DNA from: a virus
DNA: 16,603 bases
Direction: 5' to 3' (one strand)
UHGV virus genome: UHGV-0121259
Shown here: positions 1 through 16,603 of the stretch, piece by piece
Layout: each line of letters begins with the position of its first letter
Position numbering within the stretch: position 1 is the first letter of the stretch
Notes under the pieces: generated by a model
What the model saw: only the letters and a program-made list of their open reading frames with translations
Told to the model about the DNA's origin: nothing
Database searches by the model: none
Position numbers and translations under genes: made by a program

Positions 1-49
1 GGACGCCCGCAGTGCGTGAACAGGCGTCCGATATTTTGAAGTGGGCAGA

Positions 50-369
50 TTACTTAACCCGCTTCCCCGTTTCGTCAATGACCTTCTCGCCATCCTCTTT
101 GGTAAACGCCCCTTTCTGACCTTCCGGTAGAATATCCAGCACCATTTCGGAGGGACGACAAAGACGCGTGCCGATCGGCGTCACTACAATCGGCCGATTA
201 ATCAGAATCGGATGCTGAAGCATAAAATCAATCAACTGCTCATCAGAAAATTTGTCTTCATCAAACCCAACTGCTCATAAGGTTCGACGTTCTTGCGCAG
301 CAATGTACGTACTGAAATGCCCATATCTGAAATCAGTTTGCTAAGTTCATCACGAGTCGGGGGAGTATC
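50..369 (-). pseudogene. arsC: arsC-like arsenate reductase remnant (5'-truncated and frameshifted)
   Basis: Two minus-strand frames together spell the middle and C-terminus of glutaredoxin-type ArsC (TPPTRDELSKLISDMGISVRTLLRKNVEPYEQLGL, then after a frame change DEDKFSDEQLIDFMLQHPILINRPIVVTPIGTRLCRPSE...GKRVK). The frame breaks near 262-272, consistent with a 1-nt deletion. The first ~35 codons, including the catalytic Cys region, are absent; homology starts right at the stop of the upstream 88-aa ORF. Confidence 0.75.
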
Positions 370-373
370 ACTA

Positions 374-640
374 CTAACGGTTGAACGTATGCTGTATCGC
401 TGCAAGCCGTGCAATATCTTTCCTTGTCTCTGCATCCCACGGTTCGTTATAAAACCACTTTGACGGGTGAGGGAGTTCAGATAAGGTGTTACTGAACAGT
501 ACCGATACTTCACCATCATCACTGTAGGTATCGAAGATTAACCGTCTACACTCCTTTGCAAACTCTTCACCACCGAGATACAGAAGTTGCCCCTGTTTCT
601 CTGTAACATACAAATCAAAATCTCTGTGTGACATCTTCAT
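374..640 (-). CDS. hypothetical small protein (88 aa)
   Basis: ATG-initiated ORF with non-repetitive, protein-like composition; its start overlaps the stop of a degraded upstream ORF (TAATG). No family recognised by eye. Confidence 0.4.
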   Translation of the reverse strand: MKMSHRDFDLYVTEKQGQLLYLGGEEFAKECRRLIFDTYSDDGEVSVLFSNTLSELPHPSKWFYNEPWDAETRKDIARLAAIQHTFNR

Positions 641-938
641 TATTGGTCAACAACCTTACAGTCATGCAGCATTACACGGTCAGGTGTAATCAGAGTTATT
701 TCATCACTTCTACGATAGCTTAACGTAACGCCACTATCCCCAGCTTTCGGCGCAAAGAACATCTCCAAACGTTTCACAGTGGCGCTCTCTTCAACGGTGT
801 AGTCATAGATTGCATACCGCTCCTGCTTGTCCGTGTATTTTGTACTTCTGACTAGCCATCCAAAACAATAGCGTGTTCACCCTGAGTTAACGACATACGC
901 ACTACAGTCTGACCATCACAGATTACGTCATAGTTCAT
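641..938 (-). pseudogene. frameshifted small gene remnant upstream of the 88-aa ORF
   Basis: Minus-strand translation gives MNYDVICDGQTVVRMSLTQGEHAIVLDG then stop; an adjacent frame continues WLVRSTKYTDKQERYAIYDYTVEESATVKRLEMFFAPKAGDSGVTLSYRRSDEITLITPDRVMLHDCKVVDQ and ends in a stop overlapping the next gene's ATG. Consistent with a single frameshift splitting a roughly 100-codon gene. Hand translation, so moderate to low confidence. Confidence 0.3.
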
Positions 939-989
939 TGCATATGCTGACAAGCTAAAGAGTGTGAGTGGAAACTAAGATGATATGCC

Positions 990-1406
990 TCATTTTATAA
1001 GCAACGCACAGTTATTCTGATTCCAGAGTGATGCAGCAGCTTCCTCATAGTTCGGTGACACGTTCTCTACATTCCTTGCCTTGTTGAAATCTTCAATCTT
1101 GTATTCGGAGTCCTGCACCTGGTAGTGGTAGACCTCTGCAAAATCTATAGCCATTTGCTCAGGGGTAGGATTGTACTCAGTAAATCCTCTCAGATTTGGA
1201 TAGTTCTTCTTAAACAACTGCACAGCTTTCTGTTCCATCGACTGAGCCTGGTCAGGAGTCACATCAGTTCTTAATCCCATATCCATTGTGTAGGCCATAC
1301 ACCGCATTACAGCATTCATCTCGTTCATATCTGCCTGAGAAACACCTTCAGCATTGACGCATGTAACCGTGAACAATCCCAGGATAAGTACCAGCACTTT
1401 CTTCAT
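990..1406 (-). CDS. exported protein with Sec-type signal peptide (138 aa)
   Basis: N-terminus MKKVLVLILGLFTVTCVNA-EG has a typical basic n-region, hydrophobic core and AxA-like cleavage site. Two Cys in the mature part could form a disulfide. No family assigned. Confidence 0.6.
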   Translation of the reverse strand: MKKVLVLILGLFTVTCVNAEGVSQADMNEMNAVMRCMAYTMDMGLRTDVTPDQAQSMEQKAVQLFKKNYPNLRGFTEYNPTPEQMAIDFAEVYHYQVQDSEYKIEDFNKARNVENVSPNYEEAAASLWNQNNCALLIK

Positions 1407-1551
1407 TATCTACCCACCTACAAAAAAACCGCCATAGTTGAAGGGGTAGATTATTACATTATTAGTAAGCGCACAGCGAGAGCCGTATTGACGGGGATGA
1501 GTCATTCAGTTGGCGGGGTTACGCTTCAGGGTAACAGTTCGCTGACCTGAT

Positions 1552-1565
1552 TGACTGGCCAGTCA
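1552..1565. promoter_or_regulatory. 14-bp perfect palindrome TGACTGGCCAGTCA
   Basis: Perfect dyad seen directly in the sequence, in AT-rich non-coding DNA upstream of the exported-protein gene; candidate dimeric regulator binding site. Confidence 0.3.
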
Positions 1566-2066
1566 GCTAGGGGTCAGTTTGGATATCGAAAATTATCGTA
1601 CGTAAAGGTTGATTTTTGTACTACTAGGCTGCGATAAGGGAGATAGACCACGTTGATAGGATGCTTTGAGCGAAGTGCAGACATTTTACTCATGGCAGTG
1701 GAGCGTTCCCGATTAATTAGACAGCACTTTCCAGTAACAAATTTAATTTGTATTTTTCGATCCCGGACAAGCAATACTTGTTGCAATTGATGATCGATGA
1801 ATTCTTTTTTGAGTGCCTGCAACGATTAACATCATTGGTAATCACGGAAAGTAAGATGTCTTAATACTTGCATATCTTTAACAGAAAATTCATGTAGTTG
1901 ATGACTATGATGGTCATCGCCTTTAATGAAATATCTACGTCCCAAAATCCCGTTCTAACCGCGAGTAAAATATCCGGCGTGGGGCATCAGGGAACAACGG
2001 CTGAAATTATCCCGCATTACGCTGGCGCCAGCTTAGCCCTGGCCACCAGCTTGAAGGGAGTTTCCG

Positions 2067-3008
2067 CTATTGATTTCTGAAGAACGCGGTCCTTGAAAGG
2101 GTCATTTGCGTCTGGCAGTCGACCATTTTCTTGACTTCAGCATCTGTTCCCTGCATTGAAACTTTACCGCACATAGCGTCCTTAGTTTTGATCCACTGGC
2201 GCTGAGAAGGCAGCAACTCTTTTTTCTTCTCTGGTGTTAATGTGCTCCAAGCGGTATTCAAATCAGAGTCAGCATTCGCAAAAGCCATTCGGGACTGATC
2301 AAGGTTGTCAGCTTTTTGTTGCTGAGGCTGCTGGTAGGATTGTTGTTGAATGGTTTGCTGAACCTGCTGCTCCGCCTCATATTTAGCCTGTTGCTGCGCC
2401 CTGAGTTGTGCCTGTTGTTCCGCTTCAATTTGACTTTGCTGGGCATCCTTAGCCTGCTGGATTTTCTGCTGCTCAACGATCGGGTTGATGATGGAAAGCG
2501 ATGTCAGTGCAGCGGCACCCACTGATATTGGGTTATCAGAAGAAGCTTTCACAAAAACGTTTTTCTGATCGTCGGTTGCCTGTGCGGTGTAGGAGATGCG
2601 TTTTGAAAAGGCGTTTGCGTTGTTATCCAAAGACAGGCTTTCCATTTGCTTGTCGAGATTACGGTTAAAGTTCTTTCTGTAAGCATCAGAAAGCTGTGCG
2701 TACTCGTTCGCAGGTAGGGTCATCGTCACGGTCCCTTCACAAGTTTTCATTGTGCTGCCCGTGTCACTTGAAGTTGTGGAGATTTCAGAGATGGTCAGTT
2801 TAATCTTGTCCAAAGCGCTTCGTTTGGTCTGATTAGTGACGTCAGGGTATTTGTCGACCTGTTCAGAGAGACCTTCATAAGCAGATTTTTTTATTAAATC
2901 CATGAGAGCTGACTGGGTCATTTCAGAGGAACAACCGATCACGTCTTTTTTGTTATCACAGCCTGTAATGGCAACGGCGAGTAAGAGTGCTGAGTATTTT
3001 AATCTCAT
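2067..3008 (-). CDS. lipoprotein with Gln-rich coiled-coil segment and C-terminal DUF1311 (LprI-like) domain
   Basis: Lipobox LLAVAITGC at the N-terminus; central Q/A/E-rich heptad-like stretch; C-terminus (ADSDLNTAWSTL...QRQWIKTKDAMCGK...VDCQTQMTLSRTAFF) fits the DUF1311 pattern of a conserved W, two Cys and an Arg. Confidence 0.7.
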   Translation of the reverse strand: MRLKYSALLLAVAITGCDNKKDVIGCSSEMTQSALMDLIKKSAYEGLSEQVDKYPDVTNQTKRSALDKIKLTISEISTTSSDTGSTMKTCEGTVTMTLPANEYAQLSDAYRKNFNRNLDKQMESLSLDNNANAFSKRISYTAQATDDQKNVFVKASSDNPISVGAAALTSLSIINPIVEQQKIQQAKDAQQSQIEAEQQAQLRAQQQAKYEAEQQVQQTIQQQSYQQPQQQKADNLDQSRMAFANADSDLNTAWSTLTPEKKKELLPSQRQWIKTKDAMCGKVSMQGTDAEVKKMVDCQTQMTLSRTAFFRNQ

Positions 3009-3459
3009 GAGTTCCCTTTAGAGTAAGGATTGGCTTTTAAGAGGCGGTCTGTAATCAGTCTGGAGGGCTATAGCAAACAGCGCTGAACACTGAACGCATC
3101 ACAAGCAAGAACCAAGGTGGTATCGGCAAAGACTGTGGAATCTTTAATTCAACTGATGAGAACGGTATGCACAAGGTTCAGTATCGATTATCCCGATGCA
3201 GGAAACCTGCAAGGCAGGTTTTGCTGCTGAACTTAAAAAAAGCTAGGTAAAGTCGGTACTGGCGTACCATTTATGACCTTTCACCTCCGCGGTGCACGAA
3301 AAAAATTCCGCAGAAATTCGTTCTTGGCTCATGTGTTCTGCTCCCTTCAAATTAATGCAGACCAAACTTAGCAACTTCCGCTCCTGGCACGAAGCCGACT
3401 ATACGCCTGAAGTATCATAGCTTAATTGGTTCTCTACACTCGCCACTGGGAGCGACTAC

Positions 3460-4104
3460 CTACGTTCTCTTCCCCCGTCCCATCTTCAGTACCTCATAAA
3501 AGGTCCCTCGCCCAAGCCCGTCTGACAACAATTCTCGCTCCTGAGCCAGCGTTTTCAGCTTTCGAAGTATCCGATCCGAAGCCGGCTTATCAGACGTCCC
3601 GTAACGCCCGTCAGTCTCCTCAACCAGAAGCTGAACCAGTAGCCAGCAGAGTCGGGCTGTATTCTCCCGCGCTTTGTCACGCTTATGCATCCCACGCTGG
3701 GAAGGTTGTGCTGAAGCAGTGAGATCCGGTAGCGCATCGTCGCCGAGTGTCTTCAGCCACTTGCGGCCACGGCTGTTGCGTGACAGTTTCATCACCGCCT
3801 TAAGGCTGCGGGCCTTAATTTCTGGCGGCGTGAGTTCGTCATCAATAAGCCGCCAGGCCAGGGCAAACATTTCATCGGCATAGAACATGCGTTTATTCGC
3901 CGGGGCGCTGATCATGCCCGTTGCTTTGATGGTGCGGCTGATGGCGTCGTGCAGGATACGGTAATTTTCCTGATGTTCTTCCGGCAGGGCGTTTGCAGGT
4001 TGGGAAGCATCGAGGCCGAGAAGCAGAAGGGCGAGATGCCGCGCTTCCAGCAGCGGCATATCACATTCCCGTTCAAACAGATTCTGACTAATGGGGCTGG
4101 TCAC
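3460..4104 (-). CDS. hypothetical protein (about 214 aa) coupled to integrase
   Basis: GTG start at 4104 lies 6 nt after a strong AAAGGAG Shine-Dalgarno embedded in the integrase 3' end; the integrase stop is at 4106-4108. No family recognised. Confidence 0.55.
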   Translation of the reverse strand: MTSPISQNLFERECDMPLLEARHLALLLLGLDASQPANALPEEHQENYRILHDAISRTIKATGMISAPANKRMFYADEMFALAWRLIDDELTPPEIKARSLKAVMKLSRNSRGRKWLKTLGDDALPDLTASAQPSQRGMHKRDKARENTARLCWLLVQLLVEETDGRYGTSDKPASDRILRKLKTLAQERELLSDGLGRGTFYEVLKMGRGKRT

Positions 4105-4105
4105 A

Positions 4106-5353
4106 TTATTCTCCTTTCACGATCTGCAGCGGTTCTTCTGCACCGAGCAGCGCCTGTCGTCTGGCAGCATCAACGTAGTTTCCCCACCACTGCATCAGCG
4201 GTCGCCTTTGTTCCAGGTAATCGCTGCGGTTATAGGCCGCTTCGATCTCGTCTTCTTTCTGGTGTGCCAGCGCAGATTCCAGAACTTCACGGGGGAAATG
4301 ACCTGCGCCTGCGGTCCTGGCGATGCTGCGCATGCCGTGGGCGACCAGTTCACCGCCAAACCCCATACGGATAAGCGCGGCGTTCGCGGTCTGTTGGTGC
4401 ATATGCTCCAGTGGTTTGCGAATGCTGGGGAAAACCCACGGACGATGGCGGCTGACTGGCTCCATGATCTGAAGAACGCGCAGTGCCTGTTTGCTGAGCG
4501 GCACCGTATGCGAACGGTTCATCTTCATAAAGGTGTCAGGGATACGCCATTCTGCTTTTTTCATATCGATGTCACACCAGCGGGCGCTAACGGCTTCGCC
4601 GGGGCGAACCCAGGTCAGTAGCTCCCATTCGATAAGGCAGCGGGTTTCCTTGCGGATAGAGGCGTTCTGTAGTGCCAGCATCAGCCTACCCAACTCGCTG
4701 GGGTGGAGTGCGGGCATGTTCTGCTTTTTCGGTTTCTTGAAGCGGGCGACCAGGTTGTCAGCCGGATTGAACTCGATGAGCTCTTCGGAGATGGCAAAGC
4801 GGAAGATTTCATTGAGCCGCGAGATAACCCGCCGCAGCGTTTCGAGGATGCCCTGTTCTTCCAGCGGTGTGAGGTGTTCCTTGAGTATTTTCGGGCGGAT
4901 CTCGGTGACGGGCGTATGGCCCAGAGAAGGAAAGACGTGCATCTCCAGCGAACGCCAGATATCTTTGACGTGATCTTCGCTGAGTCCACAGGTCCGTTTT
5001 TTCTCTTCCAGCCACTGTCCGGCTACCTTTTCCAGCGTGCATTCATTCTGGATGCGTTTTTCTTCGGCCATTTCAGCTAAGTGTTGACGAGGATCGATGC
5101 CCTGCCAGAGCAGTCGTCTGTACTGTGTGCGAGTTTCGCGGGCCATCGCCAGTGTAACGACCGGGTAAGGGCCAAGGCTGGTTTTGGTGCGCTTTTTGGT
5201 GACGGGATGATAATACTCGAAATGCCAGGCCTTCCTCCCTGAAGTCTTAACCAGCAAGTACAGGCCTTCACCGTCCCGTAGCTCATAATCTGTGCTACGG
5301 GGCTTCGCGCCAGCGATCTCCACATTTGTTAAGGGTTTCAGTTGCTTAGGCAT
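4106..5353 (-). CDS. int: P4-family tyrosine integrase (site-specific recombinase)
   Basis: 415 aa; N-terminal arm-binding region (KPLTNVEIAGAKP...DGEGLYLLV) and C-terminal catalytic region with conserved His/Arg/Tyr context (HGMRSIARTAG...ALAHQ...AYNRSDYLEQRR), resembling CP4-57 IntA-type integrases. Lies immediately downstream of the ssrA 3'-end att copy on the same strand. Confidence 0.9.
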   Translation of the reverse strand: MPKQLKPLTNVEIAGAKPRSTDYELRDGEGLYLLVKTSGRKAWHFEYYHPVTKKRTKTSLGPYPVVTLAMARETRTQYRRLLWQGIDPRQHLAEMAEEKRIQNECTLEKVAGQWLEEKKRTCGLSEDHVKDIWRSLEMHVFPSLGHTPVTEIRPKILKEHLTPLEEQGILETLRRVISRLNEIFRFAISEELIEFNPADNLVARFKKPKKQNMPALHPSELGRLMLALQNASIRKETRCLIEWELLTWVRPGEAVSARWCDIDMKKAEWRIPDTFMKMNRSHTVPLSKQALRVLQIMEPVSRHRPWVFPSIRKPLEHMHQQTANAALIRMGFGGELVAHGMRSIARTAGAGHFPREVLESALAHQKEDEIEAAYNRSDYLEQRRPLMQWWGNYVDAARRQALLGAEEPLQIVKGE

Positions 5354-5519: not shown

Positions 5520-5564
5520 TGGTGGAGCTGGCGGGAGTTGAACCCGCGTCCGAAATTCCTACAT
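5520..5564 (-). repeat. ssrA: 45-bp fragment of the ssrA (tmRNA) 3' end; attachment-site core shared by the two elements
   Basis: Minus strand reads ATGTAGGAATTTCGGACGCGGGTTCAACTCCCGCCAGCTCCACCA, matching the tmRNA 3' acceptor/T-arm and CCA tail as I recall the E. coli sequence. DNA 5' of it (5565 onward) is AT-rich and unrelated to tmRNA, so this is a partial copy, not a gene. Confidence 0.85.
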
Positions 5565-5649
5565 ACCATTTTTACCATAATGAAAACAGTTGTTTGTATT
5601 TAAAAACAGTATGTTAGTGTTGTTTTGTGTTAGTCCGTTTTATCCGTTT

Positions 5650-6717
5650 TTAACTCTCTGCCGCCACTTTGTCGCCATTAAAGGTAAGCAGAGGATCCGT
5701 TTTACCACTATAAGTGGAGATAACTTGAAAGATTGGTACATCATACTTTGCTATCAAATCTGCTATCATGAAAATCTTGCCAGAAGATGCATCGTCTTTG
5801 TATGAAAAAAAATCATCTGTAATATCAAGAATGTCTATCGTAAATTTAAAGTAAGTCGCTATGGTATTTCCAAGCTCACTACTAGACATGAAGTTTGTGA
5901 AAATTTGATATCCTTCTGTAGATAAGGAGGCATGTTCATTTAAACTGACAGTGGTCAAACACAACATCCGGTTTAATTTTAATAGTTTAAATTCTATTGA
6001 ATGTAGTGCTTGCATTTGACGCACTAGAACGTCATTGATATCTAACCCTTTATTCGATGAAGCAAAGCTTTCCATGGATTTAAGAATTTCGAGCCAATAT
6101 TTATTGATTTTTTTTATATATTCTTTATTTGCTTTTGCTGGCCTACCTTTTTCTGGGTTGCTTTCGTCAAATATATATCTATATAAATGTATAGGGTATG
6201 AAACCTTGCATGTAATCTCATGTATTTCAAGGTGGCGTTTGCGATGAATTATTTGGCCAGGTAAATTAGTAAAGTAATCAGTGACAAATTTCAAATGGCT
6301 ATAATGACTATCTGAAAGATTTTTTTGTTTAGCCTCCTGAATCTGTCGATTTGTTTGAACTGTCCGATGAATGTTAGCTACTACGGCAACAAATGGTATG
6401 GATAAAGAAAGTAACGCGATGGGAAGTTTGCTAATAGCAATGAAATTATTAAATCCATCACTGTTAAATTGCGGACTATGTCCAAGCCAGGAAAATAAAC
6501 CAAAATAAAATGATGATAGTAATGGTATCCTTATTGATTGTTTGAATAAGTATTGTTTTGTTAACGGTCTTTCATCCATTTCAAAAGCTTTTTTATTTAT
6601 ACAGAGTGTTAACTCAATAAACACATATAACACATACAAAGATATTAGTGCATATGACAGCCATGAATGTTGTTGAATAAAATCGTTAATAAACACTTTT
6701 TGAGTTTCTCCATCCAA
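5650..6717 (-). CDS. AT-rich membrane-anchored protein of unknown function (about 355 aa), cargo gene between att core and prophage integrase
   Basis: Long ORF in a markedly AT-rich segment (by eye) unlike flanking phage DNA. Three hydrophobic helices in the first ~120 residues, then a ~235-aa K/N/I/Y-rich soluble domain. The start codon is uncertain (TTG at 6717 or GTG at 6696); both overlap the integrase 3' end. Confidence 0.6.
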   Translation of the reverse strand: MDGETQKVFINDFIQQHSWLSYALISLYVLYVFIELTLCINKKAFEMDERPLTKQYLFKQSIRIPLLSSFYFGLFSWLGHSPQFNSDGFNNFIAISKLPIALLSLSIPFVAVVANIHRTVQTNRQIQEAKQKNLSDSHYSHLKFVTDYFTNLPGQIIHRKRHLEIHEITCKVSYPIHLYRYIFDESNPEKGRPAKANKEYIKKINKYWLEILKSMESFASSNKGLDINDVLVRQMQALHSIEFKLLKLNRMLCLTTVSLNEHASLSTEGYQIFTNFMSSSELGNTIATYFKFTIDILDITDDFFSYKDDASSGKIFMIADLIAKYDVPIFQVISTYSGKTDPLLTFNGDKVAAES

Positions 6718-7726
6718 GATTAGCTAGTGGATTCTTTGTTACTGCATCTTCTAAATGGTCGGGGGCAAAGTGGGCGTAAACCATCGTCATTTTTATATCG
6801 GCATGACCCAAAATATCTCGCAGTACCAATATATTTCCGCCGTTCATCATAAAGTGGCTGGCGAATGTATGGCGCAGCACGTGGGTGCATTGCCCCTCCG
6901 GCAGATCAATACTGGCCCGCTTTACTGCCCGCTCAAAGGCTTTTCTGCATGGCGTGAATAACTTCCCTCTGTTTTTGGGGAGTTCTTCATACAGATCCTG
7001 AGAAATAGGCACGGTACGGTTTTTCTTGCCCTTGGTCTTGGTATAGGTGATCCGGTATTTCGATAACTGATGGCCCTGCAGGTTTTCGGCTTCACTCCAG
7101 CGCGCGCCGGTGGCCAGGCATATTTTTGCAATCATCAGCAGGCTGGGGCTTTGAGATTCCGCGCAGGCATCCAGTAGGCGTTTAATTTCTTCCGGAGCCA
7201 AGAACGCCAGCTCACCTTCTGCGATTTTAAATGTTGGTAGCCCGGCGAGAGGGTTTGGTGCTGACCAGTGGCCTAGCTTTTTCAGGGTGCCAAAAACCGA
7301 TGATAGGTTACGTTGTTCGAGGTTTACCGTTCGGGGCTTAACTGGTGACATAAACGCGCCATCTTCATTTCGCATTTCACCTTTTAGCCGCGCTTCCCGA
7401 TATTTTGTGAAATCGGCTGCCGTTAACTCTGAAGCAACCGGATCGCCCAGACCATTACAAATAATGTTGAGTTTCGCCATTAGACGTTTCGGATCCGCAA
7501 GCGTCTGACCGTAGAGTGAGTGCCATTGCTCAATTACTTCTGACAAGCGCCGCCGATCTTCCTTCTCACCAAGCCATGGCTTTTTGTTCACTTCATCCAT
7601 GGTGAAGTTTTCGAATGCTACGGCCTCACCTTTCGTCGCAAATTGCTTGCGCACGCGTTTGCCGTCGCGTCCGTTTGGGTAGCATTCACACAACCATTTT
7701 CCGTTCGGCTGCTTTCTGATGGTCAT
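6686..7726 (-). CDS. int: P2/186-family tyrosine integrase
   Basis: 346 aa; N-terminal arm-binding type fold (KQPNGKWLCECYPNGRDGKRVRKQFATKGEA) and C-terminal catalytic box HVLRHTFASHFMMNGGNILVLRDILGHADIKMTMVYAHF. ATG at 7724-7726, three nucleotides downstream of the repressor stop, as in the P2 C-int operon. Confidence 0.9.
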   Translation of the reverse strand: MTIRKQPNGKWLCECYPNGRDGKRVRKQFATKGEAVAFENFTMDEVNKKPWLGEKEDRRRLSEVIEQWHSLYGQTLADPKRLMAKLNIICNGLGDPVASELTAADFTKYREARLKGEMRNEDGAFMSPVKPRTVNLEQRNLSSVFGTLKKLGHWSAPNPLAGLPTFKIAEGELAFLAPEEIKRLLDACAESQSPSLLMIAKICLATGARWSEAENLQGHQLSKYRITYTKTKGKKNRTVPISQDLYEELPKNRGKLFTPCRKAFERAVKRASIDLPEGQCTHVLRHTFASHFMMNGGNILVLRDILGHADIKMTMVYAHFAPDHLEDAVTKNPLANLGWRNSKSVY

Positions 7727-7729
7727 AAG

Positions 7730-8362
7730 TTAGAGGCTCTTGATTACTTTTATAGCACGGCCTACAACCTCGATATCATCAAGGCTGCACTCAAAAGATG
7801 ACTCACCCTGCTGGACAATTAAGCGATTGCCGGGGATGCGTGCAAGTTTAGCTATCGTTTTTATTCCATCAATATCAACGAGCCATACGCCATTTACTGG
7901 TGGAGTACCGCTACGGTCAACGAGGTAAGAGCCATCGTCTGTATGGATGAGCCACGGATTAGTCATGTTGTGGGGGATTAGACTTTTATCCAATATCACC
8001 TTGCCTTGGTCCACTAAAGCGCCACCATCTAATGTGGCCTTATCAATTTCAGGCGCTACAACCTCGGATAACGGTTTGATGTGGGGCTGGTTCACAAAAC
8101 CAAAACTATTTTCCTGCGCATTATTATCATTTTTATCACCTTGCCCAGTCGTTAACCAAAGCAGCGAAACCCCAGTTTCAAGAGCGCACTGTATAACCCA
8201 TTCTGCAGGGAAGCTATCTCTTAAGTATCTGTTTGCCATAGTGCTTTTTGAAACGGAAAGATGGTCACACAACTGCTGTCGAGAGTTGAAGTTATAAGCC
8301 TTAATCAGCCTATTGATAGCTTCACGCCCTCCGCTCTCATTACCTACCTTGATAGATCTCAT
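7730..8362 (-). CDS. phage CI-type immunity repressor (186-like size class)
   Basis: About 210 aa directly upstream of and co-oriented with int, divergent from the early operon; N-terminal region has an HTH-like segment (QQLCDHLSVSKSTMANRYL). No GDSM-type S24 peptidase motif seen, so probably not autocleavable. First ATG at 8360-8362. Confidence 0.65.
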   Translation of the reverse strand: MRSIKVGNESGGREAINRLIKAYNFNSRQQLCDHLSVSKSTMANRYLRDSFPAEWVIQCALETGVSLLWLTTGQGDKNDNNAQENSFGFVNQPHIKPLSEVVAPEIDKATLDGGALVDQGKVILDKSLIPHNMTNPWLIHTDDGSYLVDRSGTPPVNGVWLVDIDGIKTIAKLARIPGNRLIVQQGESSFECSLDDIEVVGRAIKVIKSL

Positions 8363-8374
8363 AAGCAAAACCCT

Positions 8375-10304: not shown

Positions 10305-11158
10305 GCACTATCCTGAAATGGGCGGGTAATAAAACCTCCATCATGGCAGAACTGAAAAAACACCTTCCAGCAGGCCCGCGACTGGTTGAACCTTTCGCGG
10401 GTTCATGCGCTGTGATGATGGAGACAGACTATCCTCATTATCTTGTCGCGGATATTAATCCAGACCTGATTAATCTCTATCAGGTGATTAAAAATGATGT
10501 TGAATACTTCATCAAAGAGGGCAGATATCTTTTTGAAGCCCGTAATGATCCAGAGGCATATCATAAGACGAGACAGGAGTTTAACTTGCGCCATGGTGGT
10601 GCAATTGAACGCGCATTGTATTTCTTATATTTAAATCGCCATGGTTATCGCGGACTGTGTCGCTATAACTTGGACGGTTATTTTAATGTTCCTTACGGAA
10701 ATTATAAAAAGCCGTACTTCCCTGAAAACGAAATATGCGCATTTGCAGAAAAAGCAAAACGCGCAACGTTTATCTGCGCCAGCTATGACGAGACACTGGC
10801 ACTGCTGCAAACGGGTGATGTTGTCTATTGCGATCCACCATATGACGGCACGTTTAACGGATATCACACAGCTGGTTTTACAGAGGATGATCAGTACCAT
10901 CTGGCGTCTATTCTTGAGCGCCGGTCATTAGACGGTCATACGGTTATCGTGTCCAACAGCGATACGTCTCTGACCCGTTCGCTTTATCGTGATTTTACCC
11001 GCCATCGTATAACCGCTAAGCGCAGCATGGGCGTGGCTGCCGGTGATAGTAAAACTGCAGTAGAAATCATCGCCACAAAATCAGCATGCTGGTTTGGTGT
11101 TGATTTGGCGTCTGGTCCTGATATCTCGGTGGAAGCTGAGGTGCGGGCGTGGCAGTGA
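10301..11158 (+). CDS. dam: DNA adenine methyltransferase (Dam-like, N6-adenine)
   Basis: 285 aa; SAM-binding motif [11 protein letters not shown] and catalytic DPPY (VYCDPPYDG); GGGGTG ribosome-binding site; 3' end overlaps the replication gene start by 10 nt. Confidence 0.85.
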
Positions 11159-13557
11159 GTAAATTCACATTACATCATGCACAAACCACCGGCGGCTCGA
11201 ATGAGGCCGCGGTGGCTTTTCCATGGAATGCCCCAAAAAAAGCGGTTAACCCGTATCTGGACCCGGCGGAAGTAGCGCCGGAGTCTGCGCTTTCAAACCT
11301 CATCACTCTGTACGCAGCGGATAACGAGCAGGGGCATCTGCGCCGTGAGGCGCTGAGTGATAAGGTTTGGGAACGTTATTTCTTCAATGAATCCCGTGAT
11401 CCTGTCCAGCGTGAAATAGAGCAGGATCAGCTAATTAGCCATGCCAAAATGGCCCGCGAACAGCAGCGCGTTAATCCCGATTTGGTGATTATTGCCGATG
11501 TAAGCGCTATGCCTGCTCATATCAGCAAGCCTCTGCTGGAGCGGATTAAATACTTCCATAGCCTAGGTAGGGCTAAAGCTTATTCCCGCTATCTGCGCGA
11601 AACAATCAGGCCTTGTCTTGAGCGGCTGGAGCGCGTGCGTGACAGCCAGGTGTCTGCGTCTTTCCTGTTCATGGCGAGCCAAGACGGGCTGGAGGGGCTA
11701 CTGGTACTGCCTGAAATGAGTCAGGATCAGGTCAAACGTTTGTCCACGCTGGTTGCGGCACATATGAGCATGTGCCTTGATGCTGCCAGCGGTGATCTGT
11801 TTGTTGCTGAAGATGTTAAGCCAGAAGAAATCCGCCAGGTATGGGAAAGGGTTGCTGCAGAAGCCATGCGCCTTGAGGTCATCCCGCCTGCCTTTGAGAA
11901 GTTGCGCCGCAAAAAGCGCCGCCGCAAGCCGGTGCCTTATGAACTGATCCCACCGTCGCTGGCGCGCATGCTGTGCGCGGACTGGTGGTATCGCAAATTG
12001 TGGCAGATGCGCTGTGAGTGGCGGGAGGAGCAACTGCGTGCCGTCTGCCTAGTCAACAAGAAAGCGTCCCCGTATGTCAGCTATGAAGCCGTGATCCACA
12101 AACGCGAGCAGCGCCGTAAATCGCTGGAGTTCTTCCGCTCGCATGAGCTGGTCAACGAAGACGGCGACACGCTGGACATGGAAGACGTGGTGAACGCCAG
12201 CAACAGCAACCCGGCACACCGCCGTAATGAAATGATGGCCTGTGTTAAGGGACTGGAGCTGATCGCGGAAATGCGCGGAGACTGCGCGGTGTTTTATACC
12301 ATCACCTGCCCGTCACGCTTCCACGCAACCCTCAACAACGGCAGACCTAATCCGAAGTGGACCAGTGCCACTGTCCGGCAGAGCAGTGACTACCTGGTTG
12401 ATACGTTCGCCGCTTTCCGCAAGGCCATGCACAAGGCCGGGCTGCGCTGGTATGGCGTTCGCGTTGCAGAGCCGCACCATGACGGCACCGTGCACTGGCA
12501 TCTTCTGTGCTTCATGCGCAAAAAAGACCGCCGTTCCATCACCGCACTGCTGCGTAAGTTTGCCATCCGTGAAGACCGCGAGGAGCTGGGCACCAATACC
12601 GGGCCGCGCTTCAAGTCCGAGCTAATCAATCCGCGCAAGGGAACGCCGACCAGCTATATCGCCAAATACATCAGTAAGAACATCGACGGGCGTGGGCTGG
12701 CTAAAGAAATCAGCAAAGAAACCGGAAGATCACTGCGTGACAGCGCCGAGCATGTCAGCGCCTGGGCGTCACTGCACCGTGTTCAGCAATTTCGTTTCTT
12801 TGGTATTCCTGGGCGTCAGGCATACCGCGAGCTGCGCTTGCTTGCTGGTCAGGCGGCGAGAGTGCAGGGCGAACGCAAAGCGGGTGCGCCGGTACTGGAT
12901 AACCCGCGTCTGGATGCGGTACTGGCAGCTGCAGATGCGGGTTGCTTTGCCACTTATATCATGAAGCAGGGCGGTGTACTGGTTCCCCGCAAACATCACC
13001 TTGTCCGCACGGCTTATGAGCTTAACGACGAACCGAGCGCCTACGGCGATCACGGTATCCGTATCTATGGCATCTGGTCCCCGATTGTTGAGGGCAAGAT
13101 TTGCACGCACGCGATGAAGTGGAAAAAGATTCGTAAGGCCGTTGACGTTCAGGAGGCGGCAGCCGACCAGGGCGCTTGCGCCCCTTGGACTCGTGGCAAT
13201 AACTGTCCCCCTGTTGAAAATCTGAACAAATCAGGGGGTGATTTACCTGATATTAAAACCATGGGTGAGAAGGAGCTGCAGGAATATCTCCACAACATGG
13301 GCCAGAAGGAACGGCGGGAGCTGACAGCCAGGTTAAGACTGGTAAAACCTAAGCGGAAAAAAGCCTATAAACAGAATATTTCGGAGCAGCAGCGTCTGCA
13401 GCTTGAGGCAGAACTGACAGCCAGAGGATTTGAAGGTAGTGCATCGGAGATTGATTTGCTCCTGCGTGGCGGCAGCATTCCATCAGGTGCCGGGCTGCGT
13501 ATTTTTTACCGTAACCAGCGGCTGCAGGAAGATGACAAATGGCGTCAGTGGTACTAA
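11149..13557 (+). CDS. replication initiation endonuclease (P2 gpA-type rolling-circle initiator)
   Basis: 802 aa with GTG start; contains the twin-tyrosine motif SYIAKYISK typical of phiX174/P2 A-type nickases; position and size match gene A of P2/186. Confidence 0.85.
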
Positions 13558-13626
13558 GACTGCCGTTTAACAATTAGTGCTTTATTGACTGGTGTCAGTG
13601 TATCCAATTAACTGACAAAAAAGAGT

Positions 13627-13669
13627 TTTACATTTTCAAATCCCTAATATACTGTACACATAAACAGTG
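13627..13669 (+). promoter_or_regulatory. LexA (SOS) box overlapping a sigma70-type promoter
   Basis: TACTGTACACATAAACAGTG at 13650-13669 fits CTGT-N8-ACAG of the LexA consensus; TTTACA (13627-13632) sits 17 nt upstream of TACTGT, so the box overlaps the -10. Confidence 0.55.
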
Positions 13670-13715
13670 GGTATATATACAGTTGTTGTGTATCCGTGTA
13701 ATGATAGGAGGGAAG

Positions 13716-13904
13716 ATGCAGGACTATCTTTTGGAGTCATTAAAGCTCCAGCGTATTGATTTTTTTATCAAGCTTGTAGCGGCTAGTGAGTGCAGCGATG
13801 AAGAAAAGCGGCTGGCTATCCAGTGGGTGTCCGAACTGACCGACGAGCTGATGGCGAAAATCCGCAGCCATGAATACTGCCGGTCAATGGACGTAACCAG
13901 TTAA
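13716..13904 (+). CDS. small SOS-operon protein (62 aa), candidate Tum-like antirepressor
   Basis: ATG at 13716 is 4 nt after a perfect GGAGGG ribosome-binding site; first gene downstream of the LexA box and immediately upstream of dinI-like, mirroring the 186 tum-orf97 operon layout. Function inferred from context only. Confidence 0.4.
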   Translation: MQDYLLESLKLQRIDFFIKLVAASECSDEEKRLAIQWVSELTDELMAKIRSHEYCRSMDVTS

Positions 13905-13915
13905 AGGGAATCTGT

Positions 13916-14149
13916 ATGCGCATTGAAATAATGATCGATAAAGAGCAGAAGATTAGCCAGTCTACACTGGACGCCCTTGAATCCGAGCTTTACCGTAATT
14001 TGCGCCCTCTGTATCCCAAAACAGCAATTCGTATCCGCAAGGGCAGCGCCAATGGCGTTGAACTGAGCGGGTTAAAACTGGATGAAGACAAACAGCGAGT
14101 GATGGAAATAATGCAGCAGGTCTGGGAGGACGACAGTTGGTTACATTAG
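13916..14149 (+). CDS. dinI: DinI-family protein
   Basis: 77 aa; MRIEIMIDK...DALESEL...DEDKQRVMEIMQQVWEDDSW aligns by eye with E. coli DinI (MRIEVTIAK...DALAGEL...KEDKQRISEILQETWESADDW). Confidence 0.85.
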   Translation: MRIEIMIDKEQKISQSTLDALESELYRNLRPLYPKTAIRIRKGSANGVELSGLKLDEDKQRVMEIMQQVWEDDSWLH

Positions 14150-14282
14150 CGAACGTTGCGGACGATAAAACTGGTTTTTACCGTCCGCAAGGTTGAACAA
14201 CGAGCCACGCGAGGCGTTAGTGCTGTTGTGCATGTCTATGCCGCATGAAATCGCATGATCGTTTGAGGATCGTTTTTGCTGA

Positions 14283-14308
14283 GGCCCGCCAGAACTGGCG
14301 GGCTTTTG
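14283..14308 (+). terminator. rho-independent terminator of the SOS operon
   Basis: GGCCCGCCAG-AA-CTGGCGGGC followed by TTTTGCTT. Confidence 0.6.
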
Positions 14309-14353
14309 CTTATGTCATGCAGGTGCATGAAAACCGCTACACAAAGCGGGCAG

Positions 14354-14372
14354 GCGTGGCGGGGATACGAGC
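14354..14372. other. candidate cos (cohesive end) site of the prophage
   Basis: GGCGTGGCGGGGATACGAG; the first 13 nt match my recollection of the 186 cohesive end (GGCGTGGCGGGGAAAGCAT). It lies in a 450-bp non-coding GC-rich stretch between the late-early region and the portal gene, where cos sits in P2/186. Recollection-based, unverified. Confidence 0.3.
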
Positions 14373-14598
14373 GCGCGCCGCGGGGTGAAATAGTAAAATT
14401 CACTTAGCCTCAGGCCCGCTGATGGCTTCCTTCTGAAAGGGAGGGGGCGTTTTTGTGCAATCTTGTTTGAAGGGATTTAAATAAATGTTGAATGTGTTCC
14501 GGAGTTGGCTGTAGATTTAGTGTTCTGTCACAAGTTGCAGTGATAGGTAGCAAACCTTTAAAAGGTTCTGCTATTGTTTCATTAAAGATTTATAGTCT

Positions 14599-15198
14599 TT
14601 GTCCGAAAATGACATTAAAGTAGTCGCCTTTAATGTCGTAAGCATGAAGGACAGAGAATTGAACTTAGAGCAGATTGCCAGTCAAAGTATAAGTAACCTT
14701 CAGTTTCTTCTCGATACTTTGAAGATGCCGTTGGCTGTTGGTCCAATCAGTGATGAAGACTATGTGATCCTGACCACAGGATACGCTCAGCTAGAATGGG
14801 ATTATGGTTTTTCTCGGTTTGGCAATCGAAGTGATAAGTTTGAATTTTGTTTGAAGCTCCTTGCGGGGCCACTTAGGCATATCCCTTCTGGCGCAGCTAT
14901 GTGCACCTTTGATGAGGACGCTGGAGTCATAGAGATCCATTTTGTGGAATCTTTTGTGAAAGATGATGACGTAGAGCATCCTCTTTACGGCAACATGTTC
15001 ATGGTTACATTGTGGGCGGTATATCTTTTTGGTAGCGCGGTTGGGTGTCAAGAGATTCGCATCCCTGAAGCCCTGAATCAAAAAGTTGCTGATCACTATA
15101 AAAAATTTGGTTTTAAAGGTGATATAAGCTTGCTTTCGGCACCTTTTGCTACAATAACTGATGTAGTAAGACGCTACATTACTTCTAAGAAACAGTAG
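14599..15198 (+). CDS. hypothetical protein (184-199 aa), cargo gene; possible divergent GNAT-like fold
   Basis: ORF in a lower-GC segment (by eye) between cos-like site and portal gene. Start uncertain (TTG 14599 or ATG 14644, neither with a strong ribosome-binding site). C-terminal EALNQKVADHYKKFGF resembles acetyltransferase motif B (e.g. AtaT EALNEKAHTFYKSLGF), but the CoA-binding Q/R-x-x-G-x-G/A motif is not evident. Confidence 0.55.
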   Translation: MSENDIKVVAFNVVSMKDRELNLEQIASQSISNLQFLLDTLKMPLAVGPISDEDYVILTTGYAQLEWDYGFSRFGNRSDKFEFCLKLLAGPLRHIPSGAAMCTFDEDAGVIEIHFVESFVKDDDVEHPLYGNMFMVTLWAVYLFGSAVGCQEIRIPEALNQKVADHYKKFGFKGDISLLSAPFATITDVVRRYITSKKQ

Positions 15199-15277
15199 AT
15201 AAATTTTTGCGCAGTGCTACAATGCTGCGCCAAACATCCACCACCGGATGATGAGGCTTGACCTCTAAGAGGAAATC

Positions 15278-15457
15278 ATGACTATGACGCATAGTGACAA
15301 GAAAGCTCAGAAGCATTACTCAGTATCTGATGTTTTCAGCCGTATGGGCGTCGCGATGGAAGAACTACTTCAAGCGGCCCCACATATGATGCAGGACTGC
15401 AAATTTGAAGGAAATGAGCTTCATGGTAAGCTCAAAGAAAAGCAGAAAGCTGCTTAA
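15278..15457 (+). CDS. hypothetical small protein (59 aa)
   Basis: ATG at 15278 preceded by AGAGGA; below the 60-aa cutoff of the supplied ORF track; followed by a strong terminator. Sequence MTMTHSDKKAQKHYSVSDVFSRMGVAMEELLQAAPHMMQDCKFEGNELHGKLKEKQKAA. Confidence 0.4.
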   Translation: MTMTHSDKKAQKHYSVSDVFSRMGVAMEELLQAAPHMMQDCKFEGNELHGKLKEKQKAA

Positions 15458-15481
15458 TTCCATGAAATGCGTTTTGCATGA

Positions 15482-15505
15482 AGCCCGGTAATACCGGGCT
15501 TTTTT
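15482..15505 (+). terminator. rho-independent terminator after the cargo pair
   Basis: AGCCCGG-TAATA-CCGGGCT followed by TTTTT; just before the convergent portal gene stop at 15513. Confidence 0.6.
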
Positions 15506-15512
15506 ATGCCAG

Positions 15513-16553
15513 CTAGTCAGTATTAAGCTCATATGGATTGAATCGGACTACCTCTTCACCAAGCCATTCATTTAGCTCCAGTAATCGCTTTTGTAACGGT
15601 ACTATTTCGTTTCTTGTGAAGACGCGACTGGCCTTTTCCACATCCCCAAAACCGCCGGTATTGTTGGGAATGATACCCATCATTTGCGGCGGCACGCGGT
15701 GCGCTGCCATCATGTCATCACGGCTCACATTCTTGATGTTGAGAAATTCATCTTTCGCCGCTACCTCTGACAGCGGAATGATTTGAATCCCGTCTTTTTT
15801 GCCGTTGGGCGAGTACATGAATAGATTGCGGAAGTTGCCAGGGCCCTTGGCGCTTTTCATGGCCTGGCGGATATTGTTCACGTCCTCCTGGTTTTGCGCG
15901 GCGTCGGTCATATACATGATAAAGCCCGCATGGCTACCGTTAATGTAATACTTCCGGCGGAACAGCGTGGCGGACTCGTTGAGCAGGGCTGATGGAATGG
16001 CTGAGAGGTAACCGGGCAGCCCGTAAATCTCCTGGTTAATATCCGGCTCCATCAGGTGAAAAATGTTGCCCTGTGTAAATTCATAGGGCTGCGTGGTCAG
16101 GCCATACTGCACAAACCAGTAGGTGTCGAGGTCCACGCCACGGCGTGTGTACTTCGCCAGTGCTGGCTCCAGTGTGAGAACGCCGCCGAGCCGGTTGGTG
16201 CGCTTTTCCAGATAGGCGTTACCGAACACCAGATAATCCTGGACGAAACGGGCAAAAGCCTGCTGGCTGAGCAGGCGGTGCGGGATGTACGTACTGCTGA
16301 GAATGTCACGTTTAACCGCTATCGGTGAGCTGTGATGCACAGCGGCGCGGTAGGTTCGCGCCAGCCCGTCAAAGCTTACTGGCGGCTCATACCATCTGTC
16401 CATCTGTACGCATTCCACATAGTCCAGCAGCTCGCGGCGGTCCAGCACCGGGATCGGATCGCCAAAGCTGAAAGCCTCGGCAGCTACGCCTGCGTTTTTA
16501 GGCGCCGTAGCTTCTGTTGGCGTTGAGCTGGTTAAGGCTTCGGGTTCACTCAT
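15513..16553 (-). CDS. portal protein (P2 gpQ-like)
   Basis: About 346 aa on the opposite strand at the position and size of P2 gene Q; start ATG overlaps the stop of the upstream gene (TGATG). Assignment by synteny and size; the sequence was not aligned. Confidence 0.7.
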   Translation of the reverse strand: MSEPEALTSSTPTEATAPKNAGVAAEAFSFGDPIPVLDRRELLDYVECVQMDRWYEPPVSFDGLARTYRAAVHHSSPIAVKRDILSSTYIPHRLLSQQAFARFVQDYLVFGNAYLEKRTNRLGGVLTLEPALAKYTRRGVDLDTYWFVQYGLTTQPYEFTQGNIFHLMEPDINQEIYGLPGYLSAIPSALLNESATLFRRKYYINGSHAGFIMYMTDAAQNQEDVNNIRQAMKSAKGPGNFRNLFMYSPNGKKDGIQIIPLSEVAAKDEFLNIKNVSRDDMMAAHRVPPQMMGIIPNNTGGFGDVEKASRVFTRNEIVPLQKRLLELNEWLGEEVVRFNPYELNTD

Positions 16554-16603
16554 CAAAAAATCTCCACAATATTGCTGGTATTGGCGGACTCGCCCTGCAG
16601 CGG
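16553..16603 (-). CDS. 3' end of upstream late gene (position of terminase ATPase gpP), partial at window edge
   Basis: Open frame to the window edge ending ...NIVEIF-stop, with the stop overlapping the portal ATG. Too short to identify by sequence. Confidence 0.3.
   Translation of the reverse strand, partial: PLQGESANTSNIVEIF

Follow-up and report, generated by a model that had tools for sequence, protein, structure and literature searches.

A three-helix membrane protein encoded between int and the attachment core of a 186-like prophage is a candidate anti-phage factor

A stretch of 16,603 nucleotides (nt) from the virus genome UHGV-0121259, which is referred to here in its full length as the window, carries a cargo gene of a 186-like prophage. 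The gene lies on the minus strand, most likely at 5650..6696, where it encodes a protein of 348 amino acids (aa). It is located between the integrase gene int and the core of the attachment (att) site, a 45-nt sequence at ~5520-5564 on the minus strand. This core was read from the sequence as a fragment of the 3' end of ssrA, the transfer-messenger RNA (tmRNA) gene, and we take it to be the ssrA 3' end from the E. coli ssrA sequence. In this study, we found that the gene occupies a variable cargo slot and that its family is present in other known defence contexts. Based on this context and on the architecture of the protein, we suggest that the prophage cargo may encode a single-protein anti-phage factor made in the lysogen, a reading for which we judge the chances to be evenly balanced.

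The int-att slot is a variable cargo hotspot with at least seven alternative contents in phages with near-identical integrases. The slot was compared in 80 IMG/VR loci whose integrase was 90-96% identical to that of the window; six ended too near int, and 74 were informative. The family of the window gene occupied the slot in 20 of the 74 loci, a rough proportion because the loci were not dereplicated, and in one of these 20 a SMEK-domain protein was also present. The slot was empty in 14 loci, where the distance from int to the core was ~130 bp. It contained an unannotated soluble family, mostly of 395-418 aa, in 23 loci and an unannotated family of 506-514 aa in nine, and fragments of the latter were found in a tenth locus that also has the family of the window gene. 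A dCTP-deaminase defence gene (PADLOC E=2e-146) was detected in three loci, a membrane protein of ~220 aa in two, and a pair of dCTP-deaminase-like and ThyX genes in two. In one locus, no att core was found and two methyltransferase genes lay downstream. The question raised by the initial annotation, whether related prophages carry different genes at this junction, is thus answered by these loci. A 2026 survey of P2-like phages in Nucleic Acids Research (NAR) describes int-att as a minor defence hotspot with 3% of P2 systems. In the same survey, six of eight genes without assigned function from P4 hotspots gave protection against phages.

Two other slot cargoes were noted. The soluble family of ~400 aa was the commonest (L014:5035-6228, L023:5024-6247, and 21 other IMG/VR loci). 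It had no match in Pfam or PADLOC. On visual inspection, it contains RYSVAGLPCLYLGSSLY.CW.E, a motif reminiscent of RES-domain toxins. The 506-514-aa family (L013:5014-6558 and seven other loci with an intact copy) also had no match in Pfam or PADLOC, and a PD-(D/E)xK-like stretch (VDFLIKH…IFIDAKG) was seen in it by eye.

The borders of the cargo were determined by alignment of 11 loci with different cargo. The alignment contained two direct repeats (ATGGCGAC ... GTGGCGGCA), which lie at 5659..5678 on the minus strand of the window. Every cargo in the alignment ended at ATGGCGRCAnnnTGGCGGCAGAG..TTAAAA, ~130 nt before the ssrA core, and the TGGCGRCA repeats were found beside the att core in every slot variant, empty slots included. 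The att core itself was kept in all related loci, apart from the locus mentioned above in which none was found. As judged from the alignment, the repeats mark the right border of the cargo cassette. Their position and repeat structure indicate that they are probably arm-type sites for the integrase (Int) in the phage attachment site, attP. The last ~9 codons of the window open reading frame (ORF; …GDKVAAES*) consist of this conserved repeat DNA, and an unrelated 222-aa slot cargo protein has a like ending (…GGTLAAES). Since the conserved repeats encode the end of the ORF, the C-terminal tail owes its conservation to the cassette border. Related integrases aligned only up to residue 325-345 of 346, mostly 334-343, and their last codons varied with the cargo. 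The left border is therefore located in the last int codons. This border geometry would fit cassette exchange via recombination between the conserved flanks.

The family also recurs in defence hotspots and defence islands. In P2-like prophages of Providencia, four of four look-ups placed it in the classical old/tin hotspot, which lies between gpA and ogr/portal. Extra diverged copies follow int in Providencia prophages, with up to three paralogs in one phage. A Providencia rettgeri prophage (L094; also L109/L110) contained three diverged paralogs at 5958-7004, 7001-8098, and 14408-15098. Two of the three are arranged in tandem in the gpA-portal hotspot, with the stop of one overlapping the start of the other, and the third follows int. 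Beyond P2-like phages, a family member adjoins a SIR2-like gene in Paraburkholderia, another lies in an island near a pair of OLD-TOPRIM ATPase and UvrD helicase genes in Dickeya, and a member was found at a prophage end in Xenorhabdus.

The initial annotation described the gene as an orphan, and this was not borne out. Residues 11-335 of the 355-aa ORF read from the TTG start matched profile positions 2-339 of 343 in phrog_17460 (E=1.3e-118), a PHROG family that carries no assigned function. A word-seeded search yielded 34 clusters, which all came from Enterobacteriaceae and bore the label hypothetical. In an exhaustive profile search, 954 clusters passed E<=1e-3 and 453 passed E<=1e-10, and a genome scan detected relatives in Pseudomonas, Paraburkholderia, and Edwardsiella. 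The window protein had no match in Pfam, NCBIfam, or PADLOC. By PADLOC and Pfam model matches, the family does not belong to the CBASS 2TM, SLATT, or KwaA membrane effectors. Literature searches with the PHROG identifier, homologue accessions, and putAbiC returned nothing. The family is new and uncharacterised but of a known kind, namely cargo of prophage hotspots, and is probably defensive.

The cargo gene is real and is under purifying selection. In the ORF list, the minus-strand frame 5650..6717 is uninterrupted over 355 codons from the TTG at 6717, and the stop codon is at 5650-5652. From the base composition, the chance of such a 355-codon open frame in random DNA of ~33% GC was calculated to be ~1e-12. 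Pairwise dN/dS (the ratio of nonsynonymous to synonymous substitution rates) was 0.03-0.07 in the conserved core of the protein and 0.07-0.16 in its C-terminal domain, with dS saturated in several pairs. Because dN/dS was 0.03-0.16, both parts are considered to be under purifying selection. A spurious ORF was ruled out by the family size, dN/dS, and ORF length. The composition of the gene is foreign to its surroundings, as had been proposed. Its GC content was 0.327 and its GC content at third codon positions (GC3) 0.275, compared to 0.45-0.56 and 0.44-0.62 in the flanking phage genes (GC/GC3: int 0.494/0.516; cI 0.448/0.437; gpA 0.557/0.616).

Three start codons are available in the frame. 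TTG 6717 gives 355 aa, GTG 6696 gives 348 aa, and ATG 6579 gives 309 aa without the first transmembrane (TM) helix. Among database proteins, P0001 from Citrobacter portucalensis, which is 99% identical to the window protein, has 348 aa; the start codon is therefore likely to be GTG 6696. Several homologues of 309-311 aa were annotated from the equivalent of the internal ATG (window 6577-6579, residue M40). M40 precedes the conserved core, and a shorter isoform with two helices may be made from this ATG.

The protein has three N-terminal TM helices and a large soluble domain, as described in the initial annotation, and hydropathy, AlphaFold2, and homologues agreed on this. In the hydropathy profile, residues 11-35 and 82-113 stood out as strong segments and residues 49-70 as a weaker one; in homologues, all three hydrophobic segments, TM2 included, were above the threshold. 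The AlphaFold2 model had a mean pLDDT (predicted local distance difference test score) of 84 and a pTM (predicted template modelling score) of 0.63. It contained helices at residues 11-34, 49-70, and 79-97; the last of these membrane helices is prolonged by a long helix at 99-143, which is followed by a domain of mixed alpha/beta structure. The pLDDT of the C-terminal domain block was mostly 75-93, and was ~60 at residues 291-300 and 341-348. TM1 (residues 11-34; 6595..6666, minus strand) is hydrophobic but poorly conserved. The conserved core (residues 38-143; 6268..6585, minus strand) consists of a K/R-rich loop, TM2, a short loop, TM3, and a stalk helix. The variable alpha/beta domain (residues 144-348; 5653..6267, minus strand) forms the C-terminal part. 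Fold searches with the AlphaFold2 model found no match among solved structures or viral predicted structures, and when the family profile was searched against the sequences of solved structures, only coiled-coil noise was obtained.

Conservation is concentrated in the core. Mean pairwise identity in residues 38-143 was 0.69 in a close set and 0.46 in a broad set of homologues, compared to 0.30 and 0.15 in the C-terminal domain and 0.18-0.32 in residues 1-37. The core motifs are GF..F..ISKLP in the short loop and NIHRTxQTxxQI...KNxxDxxYxHxK in the stalk helix. H110 and Q114 were invariant across 65 diverse members, and R111, T112, T115, Q118, I119, K125, N126, D129, H134, and K136 were conserved in >=90% of them. 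Stalk conservation was confined to one helical face, and 1.2% of shuffles reached the observed value; TM3 was conserved on all sides. In the globular domain, only Y172 was invariant or nearly so, and this speaks against an enzyme. Across the 65 members, K+R counts were low in the N-terminus (0.75) and loop 2 (1.1) and higher in loop 1 (3.4) and directly after TM3 (4.2). By the positive-inside rule, this distribution predicts an N-out/C-in orientation with the large domain in the cytoplasm. The C-terminal domain is probably cytoplasmic also if translation starts at M40.

The position of the gene between the ssrA-derived att core and the P2-type int, where the initial annotation had placed it, bears on its expression. 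The cI, int, and cargo genes are on one strand and tightly packed, overlapping or abutting. The presumed lysogenic transcript (cI-int-cargo) would begin with the gene for a 186-type CI repressor (7730..8368, minus strand; Pfam Phage_CI_repr and Phage_CI_C), followed by int, which encodes a P2/186-type tyrosine integrase (6686..7726, minus strand; Pfam Int_N and Phage_integrase). The cargo ORF overlaps the int stop codon (6686-6688), with an overlap of 11 nt from the GTG start and 32 nt from the TTG start. A scan found no terminator-like site on the minus strand between cI, int, and the cargo gene, and no promoter-like site upstream of the cargo gene. The sole minus-strand promoter-like match near the 5' end of the gene was weak and lay inside the ORF at 6564-6537, just downstream of ATG 6579. 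In phage 186, cI and int are expressed from pL, the lysogenic promoter, which faces pR. Since the cargo gene is on the same strand as cI and int, and pL drives these two genes in 186, we infer that it would be expressed in the lysogen. By this analogy, it may be transcribed together with cI and int. The same arrangement, cI-int-X, was seen in 186-like prophages integrated at ssrA or elsewhere, and also in a reduced prophage remnant.

Taken as an anti-phage factor, the protein might act as follows. The lysogenic promoter would drive the cargo gene along with cI and int, and the product of the cargo gene would enter the inner membrane by three helices with the N-terminus out and the C-terminus in. 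The conserved TM2-TM3-stalk module would be the executing part; it would probably oligomerise and either perturb the membrane or block infection at a membrane step. The cytoplasmic domain, which evolves fast, would act as the sensor that determines which invading phage is recognised. The result would be abortive infection or exclusion of other phages, which would shield the lysogen and the resident prophage. The initial annotation had named an exclusion or abortive-infection factor as a common role for such genes; this stands as the best reading of the context, and its support is association.

Several points weigh against an anti-phage function. The proposal is inferred from context and architecture, and the topology has the positive-inside rule as its one basis. 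Among the 65 diverse members, no Pfam family or PADLOC model was matched convincingly; one or two of the 65 gave weak PADLOC matches (best 4e-5, to 2TM_IV), and at E<=10 these were scattered and single (2TM_IV, KwaA, LeoA). The slot counts are rough, as stated above. The slot also takes cargo that does not look like defence, namely the two-gene cargo of a dCTP-deaminase/dUTPase-like protein and the ThyX thymidylate synthase (L068 5044-6611; L081 5041-6596), and location is thus not proof of defence.

The same data allow a bolder proposal, which we regard as tentative and as less probable than an anti-phage function in general. The family may represent a new, widespread one-protein defence in which the three helices and the stalk form a gated pore or membrane disruptor and the hypervariable cytoplasmic domain is the phage sensor. 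The up to three diverged paralogs per P2-like phage would then be a repertoire of specificities, exchanged as cassettes by recombination at two conserved borders, one at the 3' end of int and one at the att arm repeats.

Superinfection exclusion without cell death, in which the protein blocks genome entry or another envelope step at the inner membrane, is somewhat unlikely. P22 SieA, T4 Imm, and HK97 gp15 are known exclusion proteins of this kind. A membrane-anchored protein in a presumed lysogenic operon would suit such a role, and the short predicted periplasmic loop and TM3 (GF..F..ISKLP) are highly conserved and could contact a conserved entry component. The evidence from the hotspots is common to exclusion and to the anti-phage factor outlined above. 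However, the large variable domain is predicted to be cytoplasmic, away from where tail or ejection proteins act, and no similarity to known Sie proteins was found in PHROGs, Pfam, or PADLOC.

Lysogenic conversion outside phage conflict is unlikely. In that case, the product would act in the envelope, in stress, or in host interaction, to the advantage of the lysogen. AT-rich membrane-protein genes beside int-att are classic conversion cargo, such as gtr and oac of Shigella and Salmonella phages. Nucleotide-metabolism genes can occupy the same int-att slot. However, the protein matched no Pfam family and did not resemble glycosyl- or acyltransferases, and its globular domain lacks conserved catalytic-looking residues. 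The defence hotspots, the defence-gene neighbours, and the several diverged paralogs per phage fit conflict better than conversion.

A function for the phage itself, in integration/excision or induction, in lysis timing, or in countering satellites or host defences, appears very unlikely. The gene does overlap the int stop, its 3' end runs into the presumed arm sites, and an island with a P4-type integrase adjoins the prophage. However, family members are also encoded at a distance from int, both in the gpA-portal hotspot and in non-phage islands, and the slot is empty in 14 of the 74 related phages, which indicates that the gene is dispensable.

A HEPN-type RNase toxin can be discounted. The initial annotation had pointed to RHLEIH (residues 154-159; 6220-6237, minus strand) as a fit to the HEPN pattern R-x4-6-H. 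The hexapeptide, an R-x4-H, is present in the window protein, but it lies in the least conserved stretch of the family: on a scale from 0 to 1, conservation at residues 151-162 was 0.04-0.21, lower than anywhere else in the protein. In close homologues, RHLEIH is replaced by RNHGIK, RHREIK, or RYYNTK, and the motif was lost already at 72-76% overall identity. No HEPN family was matched in Pfam or PADLOC, and no HEPN structure was present among the fold matches listed.

Homology to AbiC/putAbiC was also rejected. One family member, P0215, has the UniRef name 'Phage abortive infection protein', which we suspect to be automatic. PF16872 was not matched at E<=0.01 in the 65 members, nor at E<=10 in 10 members including P0215. 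For profile-profile comparison, 21 PF16872 proteins were aligned, seeded from the AbiC-like gene of plasmid p275A. In hhalign, the family alignment matched this alignment with a probability of 3.7%, and a single-sequence comparison gave a weak match at TM3 (7.7%). The lactococcal AbiC/AbiP (PF16872) are likewise encoded by single genes and have ~340 aa, with N-terminal TM helices and an extramembrane domain of ~230 aa. However, AbiC is described with two TM helices, whereas the window protein has three and a domain of 205 aa, and the likeness is one of architecture only. The conserved residues of AbiC are in its C-terminal domain, whereas those of the window family are in TM3 and the stalk.

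The closest functional analogue may be RexA/RexB of lambda. These accessory genes lie downstream of the repressor gene cI and are co-transcribed with it, have membrane and cytoplasmic parts, and act on other phages; in the window protein, both roles would be fused in one chain. RexB has four TM helices and a separate partner in RexA, whereas the window protein is single and has three, and no sequence or fold similarity was found. The window gene also resembles the cargo of the P2 hotspots (old, tin, and fun/Z; catalogued in Rousset 2022 and the 2026 NAR survey) in that it is a single gene, AT-rich, and swapped between near-identical phages. It also shares their location, as it is in the int-att slot, a minor P2 defence hotspot, and its relatives are in the main gpA-portal hotspot. 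It differs in that it is not homologous to any system catalogued in PADLOC v2.

If the anti-phage function is true, the family is a compact one-gene defence of ~950 clusters at 50% identity that PADLOC, Pfam, and NCBIfam have missed. It spans enterobacteria, Pseudomonas, and Paraburkholderia, and it is one of the two commonest int-att cargoes in ssrA-integrating 186-like prophages. It would then probably influence the range of phages to which many clinical Enterobacterales lysogens are susceptible. The split between conserved core and variable domain, together with the natural paralog sets, lends itself to studies of how specificity is encoded. The sharp cassette borders show how cargo genes swap between phages.

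Other regions of the window were also annotated. No tmRNA or other RNA gene was found in the window with Rfam or ARAGORN. A second island (window 1-5353), which carries a P4-type integrase gene on the minus strand (4106-5353), borders the prophage at the ssrA att core. It encodes a 313-aa LprI-domain protein (2067-3008) and contains ORFs without assigned function. In a near-identical Citrobacter genome, L104 (9345-14131), the same P4-type integrase is followed by domains of the GAPS4 defence system; the cargo of this island therefore varies too. The remainder of the window consists of a 186-like early region and the portal gene. Its classical P2 hotspot (13557-15513) is flanked by gpA (11149-13557) and by the portal gene, which is on the minus strand (15513-16556). 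This interval contains a DinI-like gene (13916-14149) and an AT-rich ORF of 199 aa without a Pfam match (14599-15198, GC 0.42). In the sister genome L104, a DUF4145 protein is encoded at the equivalent place.

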